64,000 bases of DNA from Trichoplax sp. H2 (lineage: Eukaryota), in assembly GCA_003344405.1 (NCBI GenBank), contig NOWV01000019.1, forward strand, positions 372,001-436,000, written 5' to 3'. The notes below the pieces were generated by a model, which saw only the letters and a list, made by a program, of their open reading frames with translations, made no database searches and was not told the origin of the DNA. The number at the start of each line of letters is the position of its first letter. Within the stretch, counting starts at the first letter, position 1. The position numbers and the translations under genes are program-made. Positions 1,510-57,000 of this stretch are shown piece by piece.

Positions 1510-2523
1510 TTAATCCGATTTGAAATTAGAATTCGTCAACACAATACGGTAGCGAGCTAAATTTTGATCGATACGCTCAAATGCAGTGTGACAATGATCC
1601 ACATCCATAGGATAGATCTCTAATTGCGGCGAGATGTTATGCATGCCTGCAAAATTTAGCATCTTCTGCATCATTATTGGTGAACCAACAAGAGAACCAA
1701 CAATGCTTCTTTCCGATCCGATTAATAATCCACCGTTCACTTGAAGGGGCTTACTTGCAATACCAATAACAACGAATTTACCTCGTGGTGCTAATAAATT
1801 AATATAACTTTCGTAATCGAGGTTTGCACTAACGGTGTTGATGATCATGTCTAAAGGCTTTAATGACTTCAGCTGATCTGCGTCTTTCGTGACAACGAAC
1901 TCGTCAGCGCCGAATGCACGAGCTTCTTTTTCCTTGTTAGAACTAGTTGATAAAGCGACAACTCGACAACCCCAAGCTTTTGCAAATTTAATACCGAGAT
2001 GGCCAAGACCACCGACACCTAGAATGCCAACGCGGCTTCCAGGTTGAACATTATGATTAGCAAGAGGAGCATATACTGTAATTCCGGCACAAAGTAAAGG
2101 AGCTGCATCGGCAGATGACATTGTTTCGGGTATATCGTAAAGGAAACGAGAATCCCAAACGACGTAGTCAGCAAATCCACCAGTTGGAGCATTTATAAAA
2201 TTAGTCTTCTTGAGGCAAATATTTTGTTTACCATCATTGCAAACATCACAATTTTGGCAAGAACCTAATTGCCAACCTCCACCAACACGTTGGCCTACCT
2301 TGAGTTTTTCCACACTACTTCCGATTGCTACAATTTTACCAATAAATTCATGACCAGGAGCTTTTCCTGCAGGGCAGTAAAAGTCAGTATGGCAAACACT
2401 ACAGCATTCTATATTCATCAAGACATCAAGAGGCTGTAATTGTGGAACATCAATTTGACTCTTGCGAAAAGTTTGCTTTGATGCATCATCAATAACATAA
2501 GCCTCGATTTGTTTGGGAATCAT
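1510..2523 (-). CDS. Zn-dependent medium-chain alcohol dehydrogenase / aldehyde reductase (CAD-like, resembles bacterial Ahr/YjgB), intronless CDS, 337 aa
   Basis: Catalytic Zn motifs CHTD and PGHE; structural Zn cluster CQNCDVC...C; APLLCAGITVY; Rossmann GVGGLGH; ALSTSSNK typical of NADP(H)-preferring members; C-terminal ARYRIVL. Confidence 0.93.
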   Translation of the reverse strand: MIPKQIEAYVIDDASKQTFRKSQIDVPQLQPLDVLMNIECCSVCHTDFYCPAGKAPGHEFIGKIVAIGSSVEKLKVGQRVGGGWQLGSCQNCDVCNDGKQNICLKKTNFINAPTGGFADYVVWDSRFLYDIPETMSSADAAPLLCAGITVYAPLANHNVQPGSRVGILGVGGLGHLGIKFAKAWGCRVVALSTSSNKEKEARAFGADEFVVTKDADQLKSLKPLDMIINTVSANLDYESYINLLAPRGKFVVIGIASKPLQVNGGLLIGSERSIVGSLVGSPIMMQKMLNFAGMHNISPQLEIYPMDVDHCHTAFERIDQNLARYRIVLTNSNFKSD

Positions 2524-4248
2524 ACTGAACTTTAGAAATAATAGAATTAGTTACGTTCACTTATTTAATTAATTATATATTTTCTTTGCTATTCAGTGTT
2601 AAAAATTGATCTACGTTTCTCGTTTTTTGCTAAGCCACGATTAGTCTTTCCTACTTCGCACTTACTGTATATGTTATATGAGAGTTATATAGTATGAGTA
2701 TGTTTATCATCTGCATATGACATAGCCATAACCTTTGCACTCATGGAAATTGTGGATAAGTGATACAGTTATATAGTAAAAAGCATAAGTACTGTATACT
2801 TGACTACATGTACATAGTACATTATACACTAGTCAGGCAGGGACTTGCAAGAGAATAATTATGGACTGGGAGTCACCTCTGTCCGGTGTAACAAATATGG
2901 AGGCTATTATTATATGTCCTGTAGAGAATAATATTCTAAGAATTTGCTTGTAGACTACTGGGTAATACGTGCAATATTTGCATAACGCGAAGTATAACTA
3001 GTGTGGAATCTACTAGTATTGTATAGCAGGTAATTAATTAATTATTTATTACTAGTAATCCCGCGTTAGTTATACTTTGTGTACTATATATAGCTTATAG
3101 GAATGTTTACTTATACTTTATATCAGATATCAAAATAATTAAATTGAAGGACTGAGACGGACAGACCTATATACAGTAACCCATGTTATATTATACGTAC
3201 CGTACTAGGAGGCTATCTATACTTTTAAAAATGCAACGGAGTACTTGCGCTCCATTTTTCAAAAGGGATCTTATTTTATGTATTCTGCCAAACTTATTAA
3301 ATGATACGAACTTAGTAATAATACTATTTTGTTTATATCCTAGTAGAAAGATACAAAATTTTAGCTTACTTTTCTTCTATTTTTTCGATTNNNNNNNNNN
3401 NNNNNNNNNNATTCCTGCTATCTCAAATACCTTATCTATAACAACCATATCATTGTTAGCCTGTAACTTGTATCTCAATAAAATCCTTTATACCTTCTAT
3501 CATCGTCTACCTTAAAATACTTTACGCTACTTAAAGAAGATATTGTTACACTAGGAGGCTATCTATACTTTTAAAAATGTAACGGAGTACTTGCGCTCCA
3601 TTTTTCAAAAGGGATCTTATTTTATGTATTCTGCCAAACTTATTAAATGATACGAACTTAGTAATAATACTATTTGTTTATATCCTAGTAGAAAGATACA
3701 AAATTTTAGCTTACTTTTCTTCTATTTTTTCGATTCGTATAACTAAGAATGGAGGTCGTGATAAACTATATCCACTACACAAAATAGTAAAATATCACAA
3801 TAAACTAAGAATTTATAGTATTTTCATACGTTCGCCTTTCCCTGACTGCCGTTCTTTAAACCTTAAAGTAAAGATAAAATTGCACCGTACTGGAAAATAA
3901 AGATCAGGAAGAATATTTTCAGTTGTTCAAATTTTGCAATCTAGTCATGAAGCAAGATCCAAAGTAATCAATGTGGCTAATAGACAAACTCAAATAAGTT
4001 ATTAAGTTCTTTTCTATGTAAGATTAACGATGATTGCGCTACTTTGAGAGTGCTGATAATATCAAGCAGAAATCAAATTTCTTTGCCTCATGAAATTTAA
4101 AAATTGTTTATTTATCATTTCTACTTTTAGATAACTTACATGTTATTACAAAACTGAATTATCTATTGATACTAGTTAAATTATAGCAATAAAATAAAAT
4201 TACCGCAAGACTGATTATATGCGGACCCTGCTAAGTATAATAGATATA

Positions 4249-5534: not shown

Positions 5535-6080
5535 CTAACCATGTCTTAGTACAGAAGCAGTAGTCTGCTTAGGCTTACGACGATGTCGTCTACCGGCCAG
5601 CCCACCTTGCAATAATCTTCTCCTGATAGTCCTAGCACTTAGTTGCTTTCCCCATTCGTCCTCCACTTTCCTCTTGAGCTGACCACTTGTCAAGCACCGG
5701 TCGTTCTCCGCCATTTTGATCAAGGCGCGGTCTTCCTTGGACGTAGTCAGCTTTTTGCAGCCGTTTCTTGGTCTATCATACAGGCTGCCAGTTTCATCGA
5801 ATCTGCGTAGTGTCCTACAAACGGTGCTTTTATTACAGCCGACCCGCACACCAATCTCTTCCATGGTGAGTCCTTCGTTGCGCAGTATAACCATTTCATA
5901 GCGTAACATATCCTTGGTGATTTCACCTCGGCCACCATTATTGTTGCTAGTCTTTCTAAATTGACTGTCTTCTTTACCATTATGGAATCGACTACTTCTA
6001 TATCGACCACGACTACTACTACTAGTCGGCTTACTCCTATGACTAAGGCGACTGCTCTGACGATTATGATTACTCGCCAT
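5535..6080 (-). mobile_element. Tc1/mariner transposase-derived ORF (181 aa): paired-like double HTH DNA-binding domain only, with S/R-rich N-terminal extension and no intact DDE domain
   Basis: GLTMEEIGVRVGCNKSTVCRTLRRFDETGSLYDRPRNG (HTH1 and GRP-like linker); EDRALIKMAENDR...LSARTIRRRLLQGGLAGRRHRRKP (Tc3/Tc1 HTH2). The ORF stops shortly afterwards. Confidence 0.85.
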
Positions 6081-6162
6081 TTTAGCGATGCTACAGTAAT
6101 AGTAAAGAAGAATGAACCTGCAATAGGAAAGGTAGATAGTCTGATACTATACAGCCTGAAAT

Positions 6163-6660
6163 ATCAACATTCAGCAGATCGATCAGTACAGCAATAGTAA
6201 AGGTCTTGAAGTACAATATTATGCTTTGGCAGTCTTTCAGGCTTGACTTGGTTCAGTTATAAATATCAAAAAGGCAAAAGAAAAAGCTTGAGAAAAACTT
6301 GCAGAAGGAAATCAAACCATGTTTCAGCTCTCTGAGTTCTACAGTATCAACATTCAGTAGATCGATCAGTACAGCAATAGTAAAGGTCTTGAAGTACAAT
6401 ATTATGCTTTGGCAGTCTTTCAGGCTTGACTTGGTTCAGTTATAATGATCAAAAAGGCTTGAGAAAAACTTGCTGAAGCAAATCAAACCATGTTTCAGCT
6501 CTCTGAGTTCTATAGTATCAAAATTCAGTAGATCGATCAGTACAGCAATAGCAAAGGTCTTGAAGTACAATACTATACTTTGGCAGTCTTTCAGGCTTGA
6601 CTTGGTTCAGTTATAATGATCAAAAAGGCTTGAGAAAAACTTGCTGAAGCAAATCCAGCC
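6163..6660. repeat. About three tandem copies of a ~170-180 bp unit
   Basis: Unit tatcaacattcagtagatcgatcagtacagcaatagtaaaggtcttgaagtacaat...cttggttcagttata...gagaaaaacttgc begins near 6163, 6345 and 6516. There is a single copy near 7093. Confidence 0.85.
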
Positions 6661-6783
6661 ATCTTGCAGCCCTCGAAGTTCTACAGTACAGTCTGAGGTG
6701 CTGTACAATGTAAACACTGTATAGATGTACTGTACTGCAGAGGCACCCAAGCAGAAAGAGGAGNNNNNNNNNNNNNNNNNNNN

Positions 6784-7010
6784 CCGACCCGCACACCAAT
6801 CTCTTCCATGGTGAGTCCTTCGTTGCGCAGTATAACCATTTCATAGCGTAACATATCCTTGGTGATTTCACCTCGGCCACCATTATTGTTGCTAGTCTTT
6901 CTAAATTGACTGTCTTCTTTACCATTATGGAATCGACCACGACTACGACTACTAGTCGGCTTACTCCTATGACTAAGGCGACTACTCTGACGATTATGAT
7001 TACTCGCCAT
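6784..7010 (-). mobile_element. Second, gap-truncated copy (probably the other haplotype) of the Tc1-derived HTH ORF
   Basis: Nearly identical to 5839-6080 apart from a 15-nt in-frame indel (SSSSRGRYRSSRF vs SSRSRGRF). It begins directly after the N gap at 6764-6783. Confidence 0.8.
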
Positions 7011-7918
7011 TTTAGCGATGCTACAGTAATAGTAAAGAAGGATGAACCTGCGATAGGAAAGGTAGATAGTCTGATACTATACAGCCTGAAATATCAACAT
7101 TCAGTAGATAAATCAGTACAGCAATAGCAAAGGTCTTGAAGTATAATATTATGCTTTGGCAGTCTTTCAGGCTTGACTTGGTTCAGTTATAATGATCAAA
7201 AAGGCTTGAGAAAAACTTGCTGATGCAAATCCAGCCATCTTGCAGCCCTCGAAGTTCTACAGTACAGTCTGAGGTGCTGTACAATGTAAACACTGTATAG
7301 ATGTACTGTACTGCAGAGGCACCCAAGCAGAAAGAGGAGATGTGCAAATAAGATGGCATAACTGACGAGTGCATTGTACCGTGATATCAAGACTTTACAC
7401 GCTATGTGTTTTACACATTTTGTGAAAGGTTGACTATAGACTAGCATGACCGAAAACACGAGTGCTGTTGCGGTCTGATGTTAGACGAGGTTGGTGGGGA
7501 TGATCATCAGCTCAAAGCATCGCCATATTTTTCTGACCTATGATCGTGGAATAATTCGTTGAGCGTGTAAGAATGAACTCTATAATACAGATCGTATAGT
7601 GCGATAGACTCAAGTTCTTGAAATCAGCCTGTTGAAGAACATGGGGCATGCACAAATGGCTTCCATGGCAGCGATCAACATGGCTAAAGTGGGTAGAGGT
7701 TTGTCCTACGGTCGCCATAGAGTCATGCTCATCTTGGACCAGGGATGGTCTCATCCAGTGCGCCTGCGTCAATGTCCTTACCGAACTTCAGCAAGTTGCT
7801 TCTCCAAGAAGAAGGCGGTAGTAAAATCTTTCCTATTTCCCATCATCACTCGTTGATAGTTGCCAATTGACCTTGAATTTACTTGATTATTTGACTATAA
7901 CATCATCAACTTGTCGCC

Positions 7919-10900
7919 ATGCCACCTAAGAAAAAGGAAGCTGAAAAACCATCGCCTTTACTAGGAAGATTTGGTACTTCACTCAAGTGTGGTATCGTTG
8001 GGTTGCCTAATGTTGGGTGAGTAGAGCCATGACGACGACAAGGATAGATTTTTAAGACCAATTTTGCAGGATAGATGATGAAGATCAATCTTGCCGGTCA
8101 AGACGACTGCAGAAGAAGTGAGATCGTCTTCTATTATCAATACAACCTATTCTTATGAGCCAACCAAATCGACTAGACTTTACCTAACGTACTGTAGATT
8201 ACTTGCTAAATCATAACTCATGGCGTCGTCAAAGTGACACAAGAATATGGCATCGACACCTTCACTAACTCTCGTCGCAGTCAACAGTGTTGCATAGTGC
8301 ATGCATGTATGTATAGTCTAATCAATTCCAATACATATTGTTGCAAGGACTGTAACTAAAACTGCCTTGATCATCGTATCCAATAGATTATGTAGGTATG
8401 CTAGATTGGGCAATATCATAACATCATAGCATTTGAATACGTAATAACTGCCTCCGAAGCATGATGCTCTTTATTCCACATTCATTTTCATGGACACCAT
8501 GATGTGATCTAGGCATTGTCATCACTTAACTCATCAATCTTGCAAGCGATCATATCATAGCCAGTGTTTCCTTCTACTGTATTGTAGTTGCAACAAGTTA
8601 CTAGAATCCATTTTGAAATAGTTGATATCGTCGTTATATCTTGGTTGGCCAACGTATAAGATAGTATATATTGGCTAAAAGGGAAGTAAAGGATTAGCAC
8701 ACATCTCCTCACTAGACGGTATATCCAGTGTTTGATAAATGAATCAATCGTCATTGAGTTACGAAATGATTGTATCTTTTTAGGAAATCCACCTTCTTCA
8801 ATGTATTAACAAAAAGCTCTGCAGCTGCTGAAAACTTTCCCTTCTGTACCATCGGTAATGAACGATTGGATAAATGACTGTTACCGTAATAGAATCTGAT
8901 TTAAAATAGCCATTCCTCGCTAGTCTTGTAAAATGAAATGCTATCATTACTAAACTATTGTTACCTACTTAACTTTTATAGATCCTAATGAAAATAAGTA
9001 TCCAATGAAAATTGCAAATTGCAATTGACAGTTGTTTTACAAACATCAATTGATCAACTTAACTTCCTATGTATTAAGCTCTGTACTAACATACATGCAT
9101 CAATTTTTTCCTACCTTATACGTCGAGTACCTGTACCTGATGAACGATATGATTTTCTTGTGGATTCTTTCAAACCAGCAAGGTACCAATATTGATCTTT
9201 AGCAAGAAATGTGATAGTAATTTGCTTTTACTCGATACAATGTCATCAGTTGATGTAGTACATTATTCCACTATCATGTAGTAAGGTACCAGCGTATTTA
9301 CATGTTACTGACATTGCTGGCTTAGTAGAAGGTGCTCATGAAGGCAAGGTAAGTTCTCAATATATTGGCTGCTCTAAATATCGAACGGATTAGATCTATT
9401 CTTGTATTCTCAACTTCATGGCCATCTCATCTCTACTTTAACTACCTCAAAGGGTCTCGGGAACGCTTTTTTATCACATATTAAAGCCTGTGATGCGATA
9501 TTTCATGTCGTTCGTAAGTAACTAACATTAAACTGATATACTTCATGTTAGCGTACAAAATTTCAGTGTCACACACACACAAAGTAACTCGACGAACACG
9601 CCAATGAAATCATACTATCTAGTTTCGTTTATACAATGTCTTTGGCAGATTTCCATTGATATAAAAGCAAAATGACTTTCTGCATCATACGTTTCAGGTG
9701 CATTTGATGATGACGATGTAACACATGTAGAAGGTGTAGTTAACCCTGTGCGCGACCTTGAGGTTATCCATGAAGAATTGCGATTAAAGGTAATGGGCGA
9801 TGCTGTACGATCTTCTTAACATAAAACAGTTTGATGCTCATCAGATAATTTCATAATCTTTGTCCTATACTATTAAAGGACCAAGAATACCTTTACAGCA
9901 AAACGGTAAGCTTATTAAAGTATTATACAAGATACATTGAGCGTTCATTTTAATAACTCCATTAATCTCAATTTACCCTACTGATTAAAACTAATTATTG
10001 AACCTATAGAGTGCATTGGAAAAAACTGTTGTAAGGGGAAATGATAAGAAAGGAAGACCAGAATATGTAAGATTTGGGATAATTGTATTTTCATAATACT
10101 CTTGATAAAAAATGCCACCTTTATTGACAATATTTTTTTAGTGTTGCTTCTAACTATCTATTTTTGACTGCCTCAATAGGATGCTTTAATGAAAATACAA
10201 GATGTTGTAGTAGATCAAAAGAAAGAGGTTCGATTCTGTGAATGGGGCACAAATGAGGTAGGCTTCCATTCTAAGGGCATCTATGATATATCACTTGATA
10301 GCAGGCCTCGAAATAATATTGTTTATTGTGCTTGCAATTATATCATTACTGCCTTTTAGGCAGTGTAGTAGCATAAGAATGGTAGAAACAAGTAGTTAAA
10401 TTTTGCTGTCTTACATAAATACTTTTCAATAAATAAATCAAAACATAAATTATTGATCTACTTTTTACTTGTACACGTATATTCACAGATTGAAGTCCTT
10501 AATAGACACTTGTTGCTAACTGCAAAGCCAGTTATTTATTTGGTCAATCTCTCTGAAAGAGATTACTTGAGGAAAAAAAATAAATGGTATGGCTTATTAA
10601 TACTTCCATAGTAGCATATCAAATCGTATTATACAGTATTATACGTGGTATACCAGCTTCTTTTAGTCCTATTTTTATAACATATTGCTTAGGCTCTGTA
10701 CATTGTTAGCATAAGTTATTTAAATCCTCGCGCGTTAACAATAGGTTGTTGAAAATTAAAGAATGGATCGTTTCGCGGGAGCCCAATCCGACTATAATTC
10801 CGTTTAGCGGTGCCTTTGAAAGCAAGGTACATATTTAAAAATTATATACATATTTTACTTGCTGATACGTCAATATTACAATTATCAAATCACTGCGGAA

Positions 10901-12060
10901 GTTTTTTTATTTTCATTGCTAAATACTTCCAGGACATAATTACATAACATTTATGCTCTTCCTATTAAAAATATTTTTTAAAATTAAGCCATGCTAATAA
11001 CAATGTACGCTGCTTAAAATTAAATGACAATAGCTGGTAGATATGGGAGCTACTGAAGCGGAAGAATTTTTGAAAGCAAGTAATGCCCAAAGGTAACTGT
11101 CCTTGAGGCACACTTTTGCTTTTGGCATGATTATAACATAATGGACGCATAATAAAGTAAATTTATAAAGTCCCATGAAAATTGTCTTCTAGTGCATTAT
11201 CCAAGATTGTTACGACTGGATTCCGTGCGCTAAATCTTGAATATTTTTTTACTGCTGGCAAAGATGAAGTTAGAGCGTGGACTATCATGGTTAGTGTCAA
11301 TAAATTCATGATACAGTGACTACTGCCGCACCGTGTCTGTTGAAAGAGGCAGGCAATTAGATTATTGCGAGTTGTTATGCTGTACTATCATATAAAAGCT
11401 AACCTCAGAGTACTTGCATATGTTACTATTTCGGTCGTAAACTAATTTTAGTGCTTTTTTGATACTAGAAATTGTTCTTTTAACTTGTTTTAAACTGATT
11501 TATGATGCAGTATAACTATTTTATTGTAATTTAGAAAGGTACAAAAGCACCACAAGCAGCTGGTAAGATCCATACCGATTTCGAGAAGGGATTCATAATG
11601 GCAGAGGTAAGCCAAAATTTTGTAAACTTTATTAGAAACTTTCCTTCCTTTATGGCGACTTGATTGGTATGCTAATGTAACCTTCAACTTGGTATTAGGT
11701 AATGAAGTTCGACGACTACAAAGAACTGGAATCCGAAGCTAATGTTAAGGTATAGTGTTCAATCTGTTAAGCTGGTTGTCAGTTCGTGCATCATTAAATA
11801 TTATATTCTCAAATAAGAGGGATCGTATTGATTAATAATCAGCTCCTTTGCCAGCTTTTGAAATATAACCTCCATTTAATTATTATAAAAAGTTTTGCAA
11901 TTTTTTAGAACCATAGAGTATCATATAATGCAAGTTCCTAAATATTTTTTAGGCGGCTGGAAAGTATAGACAGCAAGGCAGAAACTATACAGTGGAAGAT
12001 GGGGATATCATCTTCTTTAAATTCAATGCAGGCGCCGGTTTAACGTCGAAAAAGAAATGA
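7919..12060 (+). CDS. OLA1: Obg-like ATPase 1 (OLA1/YchF), 17 exons: 7919-8016, 8784-8854, 8982-8993, 9122-9182, 9282-9348, 9453-9513, 9698-9789, 9879-9905, 10010-10066, 10180-10257, 10489-10586, 10745-10826, 11034-11092, 11193-11289, 11535-11606, 11699-11749, 11953-12060
   Basis: Spliced translation [42 protein letters not shown]...[22 protein letters not shown]...[23 protein letters not shown]...[25 protein letters not shown]...[25 protein letters not shown]. Splice phases are consistent throughout. Confidence 0.97.
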
Positions 12061-12923: not shown

Positions 12924-14976
12924 TCAGGTGGTTACGCGTAACTGGTTCCAATTTCGGCATAACAGTAGCATATGCATAAATTCTTTATGACCTGGCCAGA
13001 TTTCAGTCGATTGATATCTTTGGCTAGGATTAACGGACAAATGATCAGGAGTGCAAGAGATTGGAATACACAGTACATCTCGTGCTAATCGAGCTAAAGT
13101 AGGAAATCGTTTTTCGTTGTTTTTCCACCACAAAAGAGGATCTGCAGCTACATCTCTGACGGCGGTTGCCGTGCAAAATTGACTTACTTCGTCATCTTGG
13201 GAACTATTATCGTCTTCTATTTCTGTATTCAGTAATCTGCTAAGCACAGAAGCTGATTGCGTTGATTCTTTTGCTTCATATCTGTATAAATCAGTCAAGA
13301 GTTGTCGTATAGCATTGCAATCTAGCGTTGATTCATTATTTGGAAATCTTGGATCGACTAACTTAGCTAATTTAACTACATCATATTCGACGACATTTTT
13401 ACACTCGCTTAATCTGATAGCCATCATATTAGCAATATATCTAATTTGTTTAGGTATTGAATTTGTTCCCTCATTATTAGTTACTTTCTCACAATGTTGC
13501 AATAATAATTTAAACGCACTCGGTATTAAGCTCAAGTTGATGGTATGGGTTTCGCCTTCTACTGTTGCTAAATTGACAGCTTTCTCAAGAAAATTGCATA
13601 CAGCAGTGAGTAATTCCCATTCATCCTGTGTTAAAGCGTAGTTAATCTAAATCTAGCTCTTCTGTGTTACACATGCTATCGAAAATTGGACGTAACTTGA
13701 TGGCTTGGTTAAGCATATTAAATATATCTTGCCAATTGGAATCAAGATCGCAACACTGTGGTAATTGGGTACCTTGATCATAACTAAATTCAACGACTAA
13801 TTTTGTAAAACAGTTCTTCCTTGATGCGATATGACTAACGGATAGGATAAAAAAATGAATTTTTTGAATTTGATGTTGGATAATGTGGAATCCTTCTTTT
13901 ACAGCGGGTTGTATTGCATGGATCAGGCATGGAATATGCCAATCATCATGACCCGATAATTGCTTAATGCTACATTCTTGAAATATTAAATTTTGCAGCA
14001 AATGCAATGAATTTCTCATATTTACTTCGGATTCACTGGTTATGGAAACAATTTTCCTTTTAATCCCCCACTGGCATATTTGACGATAAATAATATCGCA
14101 TAAGACTTGATCGTAAGTCTTTAAGCAAAGAGCAGGAGAATGTGTAACATGAAGTAATAAACGTTTGAGTATCCATTGATCATTAATCCAGTTTGCTGAA
14201 ATAGTAATTGAACCTTTTGGAACAGAGCGTGAAGAACAATCAATCGATAGAGCAATCTTGGATGTTACTGTACGTATCGATGTTTTGGCTATGCGGCATA
14301 AAATGCTAAAATAATCACTAATATAGTTCTGAATTGTGGTTCTATCTGGAGGTACATAGTAAGGTTGCAGTCTGTGTAACATTTCTGTAAATTTTCTATT
14401 TTCAACATCACTAAGAGGGATGATACCATGGATCATCCAAGCTCCGATCGATTCTACAATATCATTATTGAACGATTGCTTGGTATGGCTTACATCATAT
14501 CTCTTGTTTTTGATTTTAATTTCAGTTTTAGTTGATTTTTCGATGGTAGGCAATGGAGTCGACTTGTCCTTAATAGGCGATAGATCAAACTCTTCTTTAA
14601 TGGATAGCTGAGGTAAATTTCCTTCAGTAGGAGACTGAGTTAAAATTTTCTTGATCGGAGATCGAGCTAAATTTTTCGTAATAGGAGATTCAGTTAAACT
14701 TTCCTGAACATTGGATTCGGCTTCATTTTGTCGTACTGGTATTTCAAAATCATTTTCTTCCCAAAGATGCTTTTTAACATGCTTTAAAAGAGTACTTGTT
14801 CCAGAGGGATTTCTATACGATGCACTGCAACCAGGGACATGGCAAAAGGCATTGATAACCTTTCCATTGATATCTTCTACAGTGGTAAAATATTGCCATA
14901 CTATACTTGTGCGACTTCGTTTTCTACTATTTATATGTGAAATATCAGCACTAACTGATAACATTTCATTATTCAT
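12924..14976 (-). mobile_element. BED zinc finger / hAT transposase-derived gene (ZBED-like), split by a single +1 frameshift at ~13642-13647; about 683 aa if restored
   Basis: BED finger SIVWQYF...CHVPGC...GTSTLLKHVKKH; F.EMLHRLQPYYVPPDRTTI; SITISANWINDQW; PCLIH; LTQDEWELL in the downstream frame; hAT dimerisation domain DPLLWWKNNEKRFPTLARLARDVLCIP. No terminal inverted repeats were recognised. Confidence 0.9.
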
Positions 14977-17900
14977 CGTAATAATTCCTCAGTTCTTACT
15001 TTAATGCAGCAATGAAAAGTCAGAATAGAAGCATTTCAATTAAGTAAGGACTTTAAGTTGGATCACTAATTTCCAGCTTTTTCCTGTTGTGATGCAAGTT
15101 AGTGCAGAATGATGTTAATAATCTCACTATCAATATTATCAGCTTGATTATACACATGAAAGCTGGTCCAAGTTAATTGATAGAATTTATATGCTAGTTA
15201 GAAAATTATTTGGACGTCATGTTATGAAAATACTTCAAAAAGAACTGAATTGTAAGCTATGTTTCCTTAAATGAAAACTTATCAGCAAAATTCATTGCAT
15301 AGGCACAAAATGATTCTTGCTTTTTATCATCATTCGATTTGATGATTGTAACCGCAATAAACGTGCCTATACTAGATTTATATATTGGTTGAGCACGAAA
15401 TAATTAACTGGAACCATGCTGGAACTAATACCTGCATTTTATTAGTGATTACTACCATCAAAGCCTCTAGTGATTAGTCTTACTGATTAATAAAATACTC
15501 TAAGAATTTGCACGATTGTAGTAGGGAGGATCAAGTAACTACTGTGCAATATGCATGTAAGTATTAATGCAAACTCTAAGCCTAAGAGACAATACTACCA
15601 TATGTCGACTTTTAATAAAATCTTAAATCATGATCTATACCAATTAATAATTATTAATTAGCTGGTTAGCATAATCGGCCGCAAAGTTGCTGATTACTCT
15701 CTATGAAAGCATTCGGTTTGCTTCTAACCTGCTAACATATTTGCTGATTTACCTGGAACCAATTAGCGTAAATAGTAGCAAAATAGTAATGCACCGATAG
15801 TTACAGTATAATCATATAATTAACCGATCTTTTTTAAGCTTCAATACTTGCGTTATGATTATGCCAGTTTGGACCATGACAGGTAGTTCTGACAGTTTAA
15901 GTAGTCTTTAAAACTTTCAATTTAATAGCGACTTCCAGAGCAAGAATACGGCACTTATAGATAGATGCCAGTTAGCTGTGAATTACAAGCATAGTTAATT
16001 ATATGATTATGATCGGTGCCTTATTCTATCAGTGTACTTATAGAATACGCGTATAGATCATTGACGGCATCAATTTACGTATACAGTAAAAATTGCAGAA
16101 TGTTCTTGCACAGACATTTTTAGCTTGATTGCAAGCTACATGCTTCAGTATAAAATGATGCGGTAGTGATATTTTATCACCGTACGGGAATGGACCTTAT
16201 TTGGATTCAGCTCCGAATCTTCAATTTGCATGCTGGTAGGAATCTTAAATGTATAGACCACTTTGTTTATGGCCTATACATTTAGTCCACTTACTCATTC
16301 GTAGGTAATTCCGATACTTTATGCCCATCTACGGATAAGATCTTAATCAAATTTGATTTCAAACCCAATCAATTTACTTATTCATGGACAATCCCGATAA
16401 TCTAAGTTCTCATTTTAGACAAGATCGCAATTAGATCTTTTAACCAGTCTTTTCTGGAAATGTACAAGTCAAATAGCTCTAAATTACAGTAAGTGATGAA
16501 TACTGTGGTTCAATTTGATAAAATCCTGTTTACAGAACGAAATGAGGATGAGGAAGGGGAACATTAACATACAAATATTTTATGACTACTTGTCTCTAAT
16601 ATCAATTAACTTTAACAATAAATTTAATTCAATGATCTAATCATTCCAAATTCTACGGAATCCGTAGTACACACATCAGAGCAATAGGTATTTGTAAGAG
16701 TTGATACAAAAAAATTCCGTATGTTATTTATATTGATTATACAGTACAGGTATACATCTGGATTATGAAAATGTGACTGATAATTTGAATGCGATGATTC
16801 GTAATTAGGAGAAGCAAAGAAGCTTAAAAACTACCTTCTATGTAATATCGATTTCAGCAAGTTAAAGGCAACATTAGCTGATGAGAAAGTGTACCATTGG
16901 AAATTACAAAGCAGCATAAGTAATTATTGATAGAGATATAAGTAGGGATATAATGTAGCATGACAGATACCGCTATTTCGAAGCAATCGCGAAAAAAATC
17001 TACAACTTAGCAATTTTAATCTATAAAATTTAATTAGATGCAATAGCTACGATTAATTAATTTTTGTCTTGGTACAGTTTCTGGAACTAAATATTGATTA
17101 GTTGAAATTAGTCTCCCCTCATGCTCAATATATGTCCTTTCTTAAACAGCAATTAATCATACAAATTGGGCTAATGTGATTATAGTCTACCTCTCTATGT
17201 ATATAATTTCTCTTCTCGTATTGCTTATGTGCCTATTCAATAATCTATCTATTTTTTTGGTAATATATATATGATGGGTAGTTGTAGTGATTGATTGGAA
17301 AATTTTGAAAAGAAAATTTCGTCATAATTTCATTCCGCCTAGTAGTTTTGATTGCTTCTATCTTTCGATAATGTCAGCAGATAGAGAAAAAGCTATAGAC
17401 ATTTTATTCATATTTTATCGCATCTATTAAAATACGCTCAGCTACTCATTAGGCTTATTACGTTATAAATTGTAGATGCTTTACACAACTATAATATTTT
17501 ATGTCATTACTTCAGTGTTAGCAATGAAAGTCCTTTAGTCTAATGCAGTTCATTTACCATTAGATTCATAACCTGATAACAGTTGATGCTGCATAAGGTA
17601 GCTAGATATATCTGCAGTTTTCGAAAGAAAGAAACTTTAGTTAACAATACATTCAATTTCAATAACAGCAAATTACTTGTCATAAGAAACTTCATCAGTT
17701 TGTAATCTGCGTAGGAGTTAATTAAATATATTGCATAGCAGATCACATAAATAATATCAAGGCATCTCATTCATATTATAACAGTATTTTTCCACAATAT
17801 ACAGTACAAACAGATCGTTAAAGCAAATATTATCTAGTTATCTTCATAGTCATAACATAAATATCTTCTGTTTTAATTTTTTTCCTATAGGTGACTAATA

Positions 17901-27400: not shown

Positions 27401-30400
27401 ACTAGCGATAGTAGACTGTATGATACCAGGGTCAAAAGTGGTAGAGAAGACACAAGAAACGATCGATTGAAAATTTCAAGCTGACGCATTGTCCTAATTA
27501 CCATGGATGCGGTGAATGTTCCATGCTCATTTTTGCTCATTTAGGACAAGGTGATGACATTGAAAGGATTTGCAACCTCTATCACACTTTTCGACCATTG
27601 ATCCATGTTTAACGATCGAGTACTATTGCTGAAGACTACAGTGGGGCGTAAAGTGACGAGTGATTCAGTTTGACCGACTGCACTGGAATGCATGTACCCA
27701 TTTTCCACTGGATAGTGAAGATTGAAAAGGTTGAGAATTAATTGATAATAATAATATTGCAAGTCAAGAAAAGGCCAAAGACGCTGCCCTTTTTTTATAC
27801 TTGTCTTGACTGGACCGACTTGTCCTTCCTGCAATTGACTACCTTGGCAAGTAATGAATAAATCAAACTTATCTCGGGTACGATAAGAGTCTTTTGAACA
27901 CAAATGCAAACTAATTTGACAATGATTTGACCGCGATCGTAGCCAAGGATCATCATCATCATCTTGTACCGACCACATCATTTAGGCATCCATCCCTCTT
28001 TGTACTTTTAAAGTCAACCTACTGTATTACAAAAAATAAACCATCCTATTTTGATGTCAATACTTATCCTTTCGTTCCATTTTAACATCAATAGTCTGAA
28101 CATTTCATGGATATAGCGTGAATGATCGTATCCTTGCCTAGCAGCAAGGTTGATTTTTTGCAGCTTTAGCCAACTCGATAGCATGACTGTCTACGCCATA
28201 AAATGCCCAAAACAGTAATATCGCCTTTTGTGTACATTATTATCAATTAGTCGCATTTTGAATCGTTCATTTCTATTATGGATAGATAGTTTTATGAAAA
28301 CACCAATACAACTTTCAATCAATCAATTTGAGTTATGTGACTTCACTACATGATTGGACAGCTTATGACTCTTTCTCACTTTCATTTCGATAGCATTCGT
28401 GACATGATTTAATGAAGGTGCCAGTAGTTGACGCTCTAGAAATTGTAGTCTTACTCTTTTCTCTATTTTTAGTTTGCTGTTAAGCACTAGTACCTTAAAG
28501 TGTAACATTTTGCCTATACTATTGAACGAGTATATAGCAGCTACATAATCAATGGGCTATCATCAATCAGCCTTCTCATACGACATTTCAAGAATTAATC
28601 AGTGTAGTCATTTGTATGGAAAGAAGCGCATGATATAATAGAACTTGAGTAATTCATACAGAATCGATTTTTGCACATTGATTATCCAATCAAAGAAGAT
28701 TTGTATTTTGGGCGACAATTAACTTCGACCGTCTGAATAGTAGTTGAACTATAAGTTAATTTCTGAAATGTTGATATGGTGCAGTAATTGGTGTAAGATA
28801 ATTAATATCGAATATCACTGTTCATTGATATTGATTTGTTTTATCTTTACCCTTACAACAATAAAGGACGTACAACCTTCACCTTTGCAATTATTAGCAG
28901 CGACATGTAGTAAAATTGGTCAAGGACCAGAACAGCAACAACAACCGCAGCCGCAACAGCAGCAACAACAACAAGTTGCTGCTGTAGTAGTTCAACAGCA
29001 ACATCACCATTTACACCATCATCAACAAGCGCAACCGCCACCTCCGCAACATCATCACCATCAACGGCAACAGCATCAACAGCAGGTTACCGAAGTGCCA
29101 CCAGCCAATATGAATCAGAGAATAGCAAATAATGCACAAACTATTTCTAACGAATATACTAATAGCGCCGGTAATTGGAGCCATGAGACTACCTCCAATG
29201 CTCATACCAATAATTCTAATAATACAAATAATGGAAATAATGGCAACTCACCAAGAGATAGCAGAAGTAGTGTCGTAGTATCTTATCCTAACACACATTT
29301 TAATGTAGCCAATGTTAATCCTAATCTACAACAAGCTGTTGCACCGTCTTTTTACAGCAATTATGATCCTAATGAGATGTATTATGCATCGGGCAATAGT
29401 AACGCATTAATTAGAGTTCCAAATCCACCTAGTGGACACGTCCAACAACATAGGAATAATGTTAGCGGTGTCAGTAGTGGAGGTGTTAGTGAATCGCAAT
29501 CATCGCCGCATTATGTCGGTGGTATACAAACTAGTGTAAATGCAACTACGGTTGTAGCTGCATCTCATAATTATATCACAAATAAGGATGTTAGCGTTGT
29601 TACTGTTGGTAATAGTGGTGGTAGTTACAATTGGCCTCAGAAAAGCAATAACGTTAACGACCAACAACAGCAACAACAACAACAACAACAGCAACAACAA
29701 CAACCACAACAGCAACAAGTGGCAACTGCACCATGGTTAGCACTTCGTTCAACTGCTTGGACCCCCAACAACGCAGCTCAGAATAATTCCTATGCAGTAG
29801 GTTATCACTCGACAGCCAATTTAGGCAATTTAGCACCATTGTCTCCAGTACCGCCTCATATGTCTGGTGCACCACCTAATCTACCACCCCATGGTAATTT
29901 TATTAATCAGTATTATACACCAGATGCCAATGCAGCACCGAACGCTAATCAAGTACTAAATTATCCGCCAACTGTAACACCAGATGTCTCGCAAGGTCAT
30001 CAGGTCACTAATCCTCCGCAAGCGCCCGGAAGCAATAAAAAAGTAAGACGTGTTGCATGTTGCTGCCCAAATTGTCGTAATCCAGATTATAAACCACCTC
30101 AGGGTGGCAAGAAAATGCACGTATGCCATTATCAAGGTTGTAGTAAAGTCTACGGTAAAACATCTCATTTACGCGCACATCTTCGCTGGCACACTGGAGA
30201 ACGACCTTTTGTTTGTAATTGGTTATTTTGTGGTAAAAGATTTACTCGCTCAGATGAATTGCAACGACATCGGAGAACTCATACAGGAGAGAAAAAATTT
30301 GCATGTCAAGATTGTGGCAAACGTTTCATGAGAAGTGATCATTTATCGAAACATGTGAAAACACACAATAATACCAATTCTAAAAAGGGTTCTCAACACC

Positions 30401-30510
30401 AAGGTAAACAAACAGCTGGCTTGCAACCGAAACATGAATTACCAGATCAAGCCGCCACTTTAAGGCGTCAAAATATATCTTCAGGCGACCAAAGGTCATC
30501 AGAATATTGA
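24420..30510 (+). CDS. Sp-family C2H2 zinc-finger transcription factor, Sp1-4 class; exons 24420-24485 and 28867-30510 (~569 aa)
   Basis: Exon 1 [27 protein letters not shown] splices in phase 0 to [20 protein letters not shown] (Sp box). Q-rich activation tracts, Btd box [10 protein letters not shown], and three fingers with [30 protein letters not shown] and RSDHLSKH, which match Sp1-4 signatures. Confidence 0.95.
29662..29717 (+). repeat. CAA/CAG trinucleotide repeat encoding polyglutamine (a second Q/H-rich tract lies at ~28930-29085)
   Basis: caacaacagcaacaacaacaacaacaacagcaacaacaacaa within the Sp exon. Confidence 0.9.
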
Positions 30511-54056: not shown

Positions 54057-57000
54057 GACGATTTTCCGGAGACTAAAGTCCAGCGAAGCAGCGGTATTAG
54101 TAGGACGACAGTCCTTGTCCTTATTGTGATTATCTTATTAGTAGCTGCAGCTGCCATTACCGCTGTCGTTGTGATCATGAAAAGTAAGGCAATATTAATT
54201 AAGATGATTAACGTAGAGATTGAGAAGAATTATCAGGATAATAAACAAGATAAATAAAAGAATGAGTACATCGTTAATATCGACTTTTGTAATGCAAGCG
54301 GTATGGAATTATGTTTGTCAGTATATTTTTTTACTCAGTTTGAATGTAAGACATCATTAGTATAGATAGTTTTAATGCAAATGGGTATGCAAAGATGCTT
54401 ACCAGTATAATTTATTAGCTAGGTTGATTGTAAGAATACCTAGCTTAACGACGAAGCAAAAATTCCTTTATTTATTTATAGAGTTTTTTTTTCAGTTTCG
54501 ACATGTTTCATTGTCGTGCTCTATACTGATAAATCTATTTTATGTATGCCTATGTACTAAATGATAGCTTGATGGCCTTGCTATTCGATATAATGATGAT
54601 GATATTTCATCTATACATGCTCCTGTTCATGATCATGATTTTCCCTCGTAAATTGCAAAAATATCCCTCAGGATGATAGTATTATTTTAGGAACGTTGCT
54701 GTCTGTATATGTTAGTTTTAATTCAAAATGTAATCTACTATAAACTCCTAAACTGGATCTAAGCTGTAGGTAATCTCAGTGTTTACGGAAGAGCTGGAAA
54801 TAATATAATTAGATTATAGAATAACATTAATTTGCTGGCAGAAAGAAGTCCCTTAGACAAAACATGGTAATAAACAGATCCTTATGAGTTCCTAATTTGA
54901 TGGAATTGATATTTTGCATCAAACAGCGCTACTGAAGAATAAATTAACTAAATCAATGACTAGAATAAATAAATCCCTAGGGTAAATATAGCAATAAAAA
55001 GGTTTCCACCTCCTCAATACCCAATAGCTTTGATACTTTAAAATTAGGATAACATTAAAAAAAAGGTTTAACGAGAAGTTATTGATACAGGAGCTAAACT
55101 TTACGATCTACGTCACCTCTGAGAATTATTTTGATAAAAATGAGCATACATTGATTAAGTATTGCAATGGACCTGTCTGATTCTCCACAATACAACCAGG
55201 AAGGATTAACTAGAGTAATGATAAAATCTTTGCTTATGAAATATCCATTTTTCTTAGTTTAGATGGATTATATTTTAAATTTGTATTCTTATTGCCATGA
55301 AGTGATTATATAACCTTAACAGTCTAAAGTAAACTGTACAATAGCTACAAAACAGTAACTGTTTCTTAAATATGCATGATCCTTTTCATGAGAAATTGGT
55401 CAAGATTACAAACAATTTAAATGTCATGATTGAATAAGAGTAACTAGTTAATGTTGTCGGGATCATAAGTCATTACTTTCTCAATAGTTTAATATCGTAG
55501 GTAATAATTATTTGGAAATAAAGGGGGATTTTCCGCATATCCTTTAGTAACTTATCTTCTGTCAAATCACTAGACTAGAAAGGTTCTTGATTTAATCCGC
55601 TACTTCTAACTATAGCGGATATCGATGATAGCATTACTCTTATACTTTGGGAAGATCCAGTTATTTTTTCTAGCTACGTGTACAGTGGTTATCACTGATC
55701 GCATCAATCACATAGCTAGGGTAGATTTTGTAACTTTTCTAGCTATAATGGTATCGATGATCGAATCAGTCACATAGCCAGAACAGTTCCGTTATTTTTT
55801 CTAGTTATAGTAATTATCGATGATCGAATCAGCTATATACCTAGAGAAGATTTCTTTACTTTTCCAACAATAGGGCATATAGATGATCGAATCAGTTATA
55901 TAGCCAAAGTAGAACCCGTTATTTTTCAGCTATAAAGATTATACAGTATATATTATCAATAATTGGATCAGTATTATAAATAGGATACACTCCGCTATTT
56001 TCTAGTTACAGCAGTTTATCCACGATCGGATCACTCATATAGCTATAGTCGATTCCCTTGCTTTTCTAGCTATAATAGTTATCTGTAATCGGATCAGTTA
56101 TACAGTTCGGATATATCCCGTTATTTTTGTAAATATAGTAGTTATTGATGATCGAGTCAATCATGTAGCTAGCGTAGATCCTGTTATTTTTCTAGCTATA
56201 GCAGTTATCGAAATCGGATTAGCCACATAGCTAGAGTAAGTGTCGACATTGATCCTCTTACTTTTTAGCTATACTACATTGTTTATCGACGATCAATCAT
56301 GTAGATAGGATAGATCTCATAAATTTTTTAGCTATTTTAGTTATCGATGATTAGTCGATATAAATGGAGCAGATCCCGTTATTGGCATTCTAGAATGGAG
56401 AAAATATGCACATCTCCCATGGTACCGATGCGTACCATCGCTGATGATTGACAGCAGCATTTTTCTGCCCATAATTAATATCTATATTGATCTTAGTAAG
56501 TGAGTAAACATCTTTTAACATTACCATTGGGTTTATTGATCAAACTGCAAGGTAAATTGGAACCAGTTGTATTTATTTATTCTGTCATAGTGTCCCCATC
56601 TTGCATCCTATCATTTACATTAGAGCTTCCGATCCACTTTGCTATCGGCTTGTGAACTACCTTACGATATTGTAGTATTCAGTAAAGTGTTTAANNNNNN
56701 NNNNNNNNNNNNNNTTTCTAGTTACAGCAGTTTATCCACGATCGGATCACTCATATAGCTATAGTCGATTCCCTTGCTTTTCTAGCTATAATAGTTATCT
56801 GTAATCGGATCAGTTATACAGTTAGGATATATCCCGTTATTTTTGTAAATATAGTAGTTATTGATGATCGAGTCAATCATGTAGCTAGCGTAGATCCTCT
56901 TATTTTTTAGCTATACTACATTGCTTATCGACGATCAATCATGTAGATAGGATAGATCTCATAAATTTTTTAGCTATTTTAGTTATCGATGATTAGTCGA

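Follow-up and report, generated by a model that had tools for sequence, protein, structure and literature searches.

The OLA1 locus of Trichoplax sp. H2

Here we analyzed a stretch of 64,000 nucleotides from the placozoan Trichoplax sp. H2 (GenBank assembly GCA_003344405.1, contig NOWV01000019.1, positions 372,001 to 436,000), referred to as the window, with all coordinates counted from its first letter. The subject is the gene for Obg-like ATPase 1 (OLA1) and, within it, an intron with AT-AC termini that directly follows a 12-nt microexon. The coding region of OLA1 is located on the plus strand at 7919..12060 and comprises 17 exons and 16 introns, the exon chain being taken from RNA joints. 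The resulting coding sequence of 1191 nt (396 codons plus stop) is translated without an internal stop. The G+C content of the window, 30-42%, fits a placozoan origin.

The closest named protein is RDD45076.1 (P0002) of Trichoplax sp. H2, which was identical in 375/375 shared columns. The protein of T. adhaerens, XP_002116391.1 (P0073), differed from the OLA1 of the window by a single shared residue (M272L), at which the window is H2-like. Both belong to a 90% cluster with 2 sequences; no further placozoan OLA1 protein was present among the best 120 homologues, where the next protein after this cluster was 74% identical. Of the 396 amino acids, 273 columns were identical to newt OLA1 and 281 to sea-urchin OLA1. 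Homologues named Obg-like ATPase 1, the precomputed domains PF01926 and PF06071 and the full-length similarity assign the product to the OLA1/YchF family.

Exon 2 (8784..8854), defined by sequence, RNA joints and translation, ends in phase 1 with the peptide FPFCTI plus a G. Here, TTCTGTACCATCG (...ACCATCG) closes the exon at 8854 and is followed by GTAATG, with the GT starting at 8855. Intron 2 (8855..8981) is an ordinary GT-AG intron of 127 nt with a good acceptor, ACTTTTATAG, whose AG occupies 8980-8981; that it is spliced out follows from the 12 letters found between the sides of an RNA joint. These letters constitute the microexon ATCCTAATGAAA (8982..8993), which was found with exactly this sequence in RNA contigs of three sequencing runs (X13, X5 and X6). 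It completes the codon for D, encodes P, N and E and supplies the first base of S.

Intron 3 (8994..9121) is 128 nt long, begins with ATAAGTATCC and finishes with CCTACCTTATAC (ATAAGT...TTATAC). It is followed by exon 4 (9122..9182), which starts with GTCGAGTACCT and is likewise defined by sequence, RNA joints and translation. When 8854, 8982-8993 and 9122 were joined, the conserved OLA1 peptide including DPNESRVP was restored. Scanning the acceptors between 9100 and 9134 revealed no single one that restores DPNES. The combination of GT8998 and AG9127, already dismissed in a first-pass annotation made from the sequence alone, led to stops in the translation.

We also considered an origin of the microexon by duplication, which would be visible as homology between introns 2 and 3. 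This candidate was rejected, with a local score of 18 compared to 17.0 +/- 2.6 for shuffled sequences (191/500 shuffles reached 18).

RNA and genomic contigs across the junction

Four sequencing runs were compared with the window: X13, which is on record as RNA, X5 and X6, these three being from three studies, and X1. One contig each in X13, X5 and X6, and thus in 3/3 RNA-type runs, contained the joint from 8854 to 9122 with ATCCTAATGAAA between its sides. The number of ambiguous bases at this joint was 0, so that the cut position cannot slide, and the mRNA reads ...GAAA/GTCGAG... at the junction. The microexon has 12 nt and phase 1 at either end, keeps the frame and was present in each of the RNA-type runs. 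The remaining 15 introns of OLA1 are of the GT-AG type, and the other 14 RNA joints listed were all GT..AG. Neither the cryptic GT at 8998..8999 nor the AG at 9126..9127, the first one after the branch box described below, was used by any of the listed RNA joints.

The contigs of X1 spanned exons and introns alike, which is DNA-like behaviour, and differed from the window in 21 single letters. Over 8707-9028 they showed 0 differences and over 8999-10114 5 differences, none of them at 9121. X1 thus represents another allele with the same A8994 and C9121 as the window. Because contigs of another allele match both letters, A8994 and C9121 are not assembly errors.

Position 11043 distinguishes the alleles further. 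An A to T change at this position corresponds to M272L, the state of T. adhaerens; T (Leu) was found in X13, X6 and X1, and A in X5. Since the RNA joint occurred in T-carrying as well as in A-carrying runs, the AT-AC junction is used on both alleles.

In the bin 8893-9041 the RNA contigs gave no cover, contigs being no measure of splicing efficiency, of retention or of the rate-limiting splice that the first-pass annotation had thought possible. As a separate observation, RNA contigs of low depth in X13, X5 and X6 ran through intron 1 (8017-8783) at a depth of 6-30, compared with 50-180 for the contigs of spliced mRNA. Intron 1 could be unspliced or retained in these transcripts, or the libraries could contain some DNA.

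Both public Trichoplax models of OLA1 are wrong at this intron, where the nucleotide-binding domain is conserved. The model of Trichoplax sp. H2 (377 aa) extends the microexon by ATAA, uses the GT at 8998 and skips exon 4 (9122-9182), giving DPNENN/KVPAYL. In the T. adhaerens model (386 aa) the microexon is dropped and AG9127 is used, giving FPFCTI/VPVPDER. The T. adhaerens model additionally lacks the 27-nt exon 9879-9905 (DQEYLYSKT) and has VMGDA in its place, translated from the start of intron 9790-9878; this exon is correct in the Trichoplax sp. H2 model.

These data leave only a negligible probability for an artefact, be it wrongly assembled letters at the two intron ends or transcripts from another, canonical copy of OLA1. 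The same terminal bases were found in an independent contig set on another allele, the RNA contigs matched the exons of the window with 0-1 differences per piece, and both published models were driven into non-homologous work-arounds at this very place. The microexon and the AT-AC junction of OLA1 are thus confirmed as real in Trichoplax. The first-pass annotation had proposed both, had asked for the joint AATGAAA/GTCGAG in RNA and for the genomic letters at 8994 and 9121, and had expected gene predictors to fail here; contigs from three studies carry the joint, X1 shows A and C and no G, and the two models err in the manner described.

Splice signals and intron class

The signals around the junction are those of the major spliceosome. 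The 5' splice site ATAAGTAT (8994..9001) matched GTAAGTAT in 7/8 positions, with 7 consecutive matches to the U1 consensus from +2 to +8, and was joint best among the 16 OLA1 introns. Compared with CAG/GTAAGTAT the match was 8/11 including the 7-base run, a match count and not a position weight matrix score of SpliceRack.

A TACTAAC branch-point box, whose putative branch A (9089) lies 32 nt upstream of the final intron base, is located at 9084..9090. It is the sole perfect TACTAAC among the 16 introns, and the chance of a perfect box within a 30-nt branch zone is approximately 0.3%. In the window as a whole the motif is not enriched (13 in 128,000 strand positions versus 10.2 expected). The box is followed by the pyrimidine tract TTTTTTCCTACCTTAT (9104..9119); with 16 pyrimidines among the 20 bases that precede the terminal AC, the intron ranks first of all 16. 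The terminal AC (9120..9121), known from the sequence and the RNA joint, forms the 3' splice site TAC/G. From the branch box to 9121 no AG is present. Apart from its termini, the splice signals of the intron are thus visibly stronger than those of neighbouring introns.

In Sheth 2006 (PMC1557818), which defines the U2-type AT-AC class, human contributes 15 such introns, mouse 6 and fly 3, while none was counted in worm or Arabidopsis; the total is 24 among ~610,000 introns of the five species. The OLA1 intron combines what characterizes the class: AT and AC bounds proven by transcripts, a U2-type donor, a U2-type branch site and a pyrimidine tract, with neither a U12 donor nor a U12 branch box.

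Introns of the U12 type have been described as carrying the donor RTATCCTT and the branch box TCCTTRAC, the latter optimally 11-13 nt from the 3' site, and as lacking a clear pyrimidine tract (Turunen 2013, PMC3584512). Could the intron be of this type, with degenerate or lineage-specific signals? Its AT-AC termini would fit, as would the GTATCC at +5 and the TTCCTACC located 8 nt from the 3' end. Furthermore, Trichoplax possesses U11, U12, U4atac and U6atac, the last with a variant 'CC' donor-pairing box (Davila Lopez 2008, PMC2396436). However, the donor ATAAGTATC matched RTATCCTTT in only 4/9 positions, within the range of 2-6/9 seen for the other 15 OLA1 introns, all GT-AG. As a branch box TTCCTACC is the best match of the intron, but reaches only 5/8 (other introns: 4-7/8) and is too close to the 3' end. 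The perfect U2 branch box and the richest pyrimidine tract of the 16 introns stand against this type as well, as do the donors deduced for other phyla (see below), which start with ATAA and not with ATAT. We therefore regard splicing by the minor spliceosome as very unlikely.

Instead, we would assign the intron 8994-9121 to the genuine, constitutively used AT-AC introns of the major (U2-dependent) spliceosome ('AT-AC type II'), with a probability of about 0.85. This agrees with the first-pass annotation, which had already read the signals as U2-type. The use of U1, U2, U4 and U6 rather than U11, U12, U4atac and U6atac is what these signals would predict. Some points weigh against the assignment. 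Due to the variant U6atac box the rules for minor introns could be atypical in Trichoplax. In addition, another AC at 9113-9114, part of a TAC within the pyrimidine tract and 24 nt after the branch A, is skipped in favour of the TAC at 9119-9121.

OLA1 models of other animals

The best 120 OLA1 homologues were sorted by source and contig size into 51 'transcript-like' proteins, i.e. full-length proteins on Logan, JGI or ENA contigs of less than 3 kb, and 69 mostly genome-derived models. Among the transcript-like proteins 49 read E-[S/A/G]-R and 2 read E-N-R at the junction; none was deviant. In the other group 50 models were as expected and 3 read E-N-R, while 16 deviated exactly at the junction (16/69 versus 0/51; Fisher p = 6.9e-5). 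These 16 comprised seven models with E-N-K-V, four with 'ENN/KVPA' and the next exon skipped, two with 'FPFCTI/V[PA]VPD' and three others.

A second homologue search used the Lytechinus pictus protein as query, which itself reads E-N-K, and is biased toward Asn-Lys. It revealed 7 more E-N-K models, none of them transcript-like, together with 2 transcript-like proteins with E-S-K; a transcript-derived Lytechinus protein was not found in this search. In total, 24 deviant models were counted, of which 0 were from vertebrates.

The deviant models carry information on the underlying nucleotides, since a canonical model can only be built from letters that its genome contains. Models of the 'E-N-N/K' type need GAR-AAY-AA followed by a GT or GC donor. 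For the mite D. pteronyssinus, the RefSeq and the submitter's model differ only by a 21-residue stretch versus N...N. As its mRNA continues with G where the genome reads AYAAGT, the first base of the intron should be A. The same E-N-N/K pattern was present in Tyrophagus, Aphis glycines and Trichoplax sp. H2.

The E-N-K-V type is the product expected from a GT at +5 and an AG at +4 into exon 4 when the Arg codon is AGR, a slide by 4 nt which keeps length and frame. Ser-to-Asn and Arg-to-Lys always occurred together, in 14 models (P0119, P0133, P0153, P0159, P0163, P0173, P0178, P0194, P0227, P0237, P0264, P0268, P0272 and P0273). These originate from Hydractinia, three echinoderms, four decapods, Rhodnius, Colias, Parthenolecanium, Arctopsyche, Orchesella and Oedothorax. 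Species of one genus differed from each other: Lytechinus pictus has NK and L. variegatus SR, Penaeus vannamei NK and P. japonicus SR. The 14 invertebrate Asn-Lys models probably go back to a systematic error of annotation at this intron.

Two models read through the intron, those of Frankliniella fusca (E-NKYFFYILKHTR-RVP) and Araneus (E-NNLRK...VDEIR-RVP). Both fit only a phase-1 intron with A as first base (Asn = A+AY) and C as last base (Arg = C+GY); an AG end would give Gly. The pattern 'FPFCTI/V[PA]VPD' was found in T. adhaerens, Nematostella and Pocillopora meandrina, with P. verrucosa reading DPNESR. Here, the predictor may have taken the AG six bases inside the exon over the true acceptor, which is a weaker argument since a missed microexon alone might contribute.

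All donors deduced from deviant models begin with ATAA. The model errors thus suggest A/ATAAGT...C/G in mites, insects, spiders, crustaceans, echinoderms and cnidarians, as far as protein models can tell. On this basis we lean towards a U2-type AT-AC intron that predates the split of placozoans, cnidarians and bilaterians.

A young double mutation of a GT-AG intron, restricted to placozoans, would be the alternative. The other deviant models would then be unrelated and due to missed microexons, copied annotation errors or true Asn-Lys. The data of the other animals are indeed protein models without nucleotides, and some deviants ('FPFCTI/V[PA]VPD' and the three others) could stem from a missed 12-nt exon alone. 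On the other hand, the ENN/K and Asn-Lys models need AAYAA and then a donor directly after GAR in 18 species, and the two read-through models need C as last base. Moreover, 0/51 transcript-like proteins deviate, and congeners differ in SR versus NK. A placozoan-only origin therefore appears unlikely to us.

Several points nevertheless weigh against an old origin. Conservation across species would be read from predicted proteins throughout, and in some species Asn-Lys could be genuine, either as sequence or through alternative splicing. The division into transcript-like proteins and genome models was our own, and the 7 extra models of the second search are biased by its query. The model of Porites evermanni (P0098) deviates in a pattern that could not be decoded.

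Two further searches bear on the position of the intron. The OLA1 loci from metagenomes were contiguous across residues 50-70 in 80/80 cases; these are transcripts or microbes and so uninformative on intron position. A degenerate pattern of microexon plus donor was met at 59 loci on genome contigs, 0/59 with any OLA1 motif, which makes them chance bacterial matches.

In many invertebrate genomes, OLA1 models seem to be damaged at this junction. They then show Asn-Lys in place of Ser-Arg, skip the 61-nt exon or lack DPNE-x-R, and a simple rule could repair them.

Probable age of the intron and the proposed conversion from the U12 type

The first-pass annotation had also raised the possibility of an intermediate in U12-to-U2 conversion, that is a former U12-type AT-AC intron after loss of its U12 donor and branch box. 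Conversions of this kind have been documented in general (Turunen 2013, PMC3584512), and both the termini of the AT-AC subtype and the nearby GTATCC would speak for such a history. This proposal was not supported. The intron has neither a U12 donor nor a U12 branch box. Most of the GTATCC at +5 follows from its overlap with the U1-matching AAGTAT, which leaves only two Cs as 'extra', and a donor at this position is incompatible with the conserved ESRVP.

Furthermore, an orthologous intron of the U12 type is not known. The minor-intron tables of Olthof 2019 for human and mouse gave 0 hits for OLA1, with the controls SCN5A, TAF2 and GATD3A found. OLA1 is also absent from one supplement of PMC11347168, a study with T. 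adhaerens among its species. In the literature searched, with supplements and subscription journals outside its scope, nothing connected OLA1, GTPBP9 or CG1354 with AT-AC introns, or OLA1 or GTPBP9 with the U12 type. Likewise, a search for Trichoplax together with AT-AC by title and abstract gave no work on the OLA1 intron.

Since the ATAAGT-type donor is seemingly common across phyla, it would represent a stable old state and not a transitional one. A conversion intermediate is accordingly highly improbable, and the AT-AC intron of OLA1 is probably ancient instead.

Proposed mechanism and persistence

We propose that U1 pairs with AUAAGUAU via +2 to +8, which would offset the mismatch at +1. 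U2 would pair with UACUAAC with A9089 bulged, and the pyrimidine tract would recruit U2AF. During the second step, a non-Watson-Crick contact between the first-base A and the last-base C may take the place of the usual G/G. Because of this replaced contact, the AC ending at 9121 would be chosen over the AG six bases downstream. The strong signals may also help to define the 12-nt exon, whose splice sites are only 12 nt apart.

Mutants in yeast and human, cited in Sheth 2006 (PMC1557818), provide a precedent: a change of the first base from G to A is rescued by a change of the last base from G to C. They would explain both the working A...C pair and the unused AG of the OLA1 intron. In contrast to OLA1, these mutants were engineered and are spliced less efficiently; here the A...C pair is natural and the sole form in the contigs seen.

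The same pairing may explain why the intron persists. The intermediates GT-AC and AT-AG splice poorly (Sheth 2006, PMC1557818; Turunen 2013, PMC3584512), and either of the two single reversions would thus be spliced badly. The only canonical escape would be a slide of both sites by 4 nt, which would turn Ser-Arg into Asn-Lys beside the threonine of G2/switch I. The segment altered by such a slide reads E-[S/A/G]-R in 49/51 transcript-like proteins.

Taken together, we somewhat favour an ancient, frozen A/ATAAGT...AC/G intron common to placozoans, cnidarians, arthropods and echinoderms, which was apparently lost or converted in vertebrates. It would be trapped by its double change and would be the hidden cause of the recurrent errors in OLA1 models. 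If the intron is that old, it would be a deeply conserved case beside TAF2 and a natural test of why such introns persist.

Comparison with known AT-AC introns

AT-AC termini and an ATAAGT donor are shared with SCN4A and SCN5A, for which use of the major spliceosome has been shown, and with the TAF2 intron, which is conserved between human and fly (Sheth 2006, PMC1557818). The U2-type AT-AC introns of that study also resemble the OLA1 intron in the pyrimidine tract, the U2-type branch site and their rarity, and the class is reported there to be kept in orthologues. Different from these cases are the gene, the phylum Placozoa, the position directly after a 12-nt microexon and the spliceosome, which for OLA1 is deduced from sequence signals.

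Introns of the U12-type AT-AC class have the same terminal dinucleotides, and the minor spliceosome is present in Trichoplax. They differ from the OLA1 intron, which has neither the ATATCCTT donor nor TCCTTRAC at 11-13 nt but carries a pyrimidine tract. A further parallel is given by GC-AG introns with strong consensus, in which an odd terminal base is likewise offset by above-average matches elsewhere; in these introns another base is changed, whereas the OLA1 intron is altered at both ends.

The kind of intron is known, and its member in OLA1 and the possible depth of this member were not found in the literature searched. The fly orthologue of OLA1 could be one of the three fly cases of Sheth 2006. 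U2-type AT-AC introns belong to the rarest classes of natural splice sites, and OLA1, a placozoan housekeeping gene, contributes a clean example verified by transcripts.

Surroundings of OLA1 in the window

Just downstream of OLA1, two adjoining ORFs of 448 and 240 aa were found on the minus strand (12924-14988). The second one contains the C-terminal dimerisation domain of hAT elements (Pfam PF05699, E = 2.3e-11); a stop or frameshift has probably divided a single hAT transposase gene into this pair. Two near-identical N-termini of Tc1/mariner-type transposases (HTH_Tnp_Tc3_2, HTH_32) are located at 5535-6163 and 6620-7093 on the minus strand. The second copy is broken at 6764-6783 by one of the three 20-N assembly gaps of the window (3391-3410, 6764-6783 and 56695-56714). 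A scan of the window against Rfam gave 0 matches.

A frame of 346 aa at 1510-2550 (minus strand) encodes a zinc-type alcohol dehydrogenase (ADH_N, ADH_zinc_N) and is intronless, which is unusual beside the intron-rich OLA1. Finally, a 588-aa frame at 28744-30510 (plus strand) is rich in poly-Gln and poly-His and carries three C2H2 zinc fingers at its end (Sp/KLF-like).

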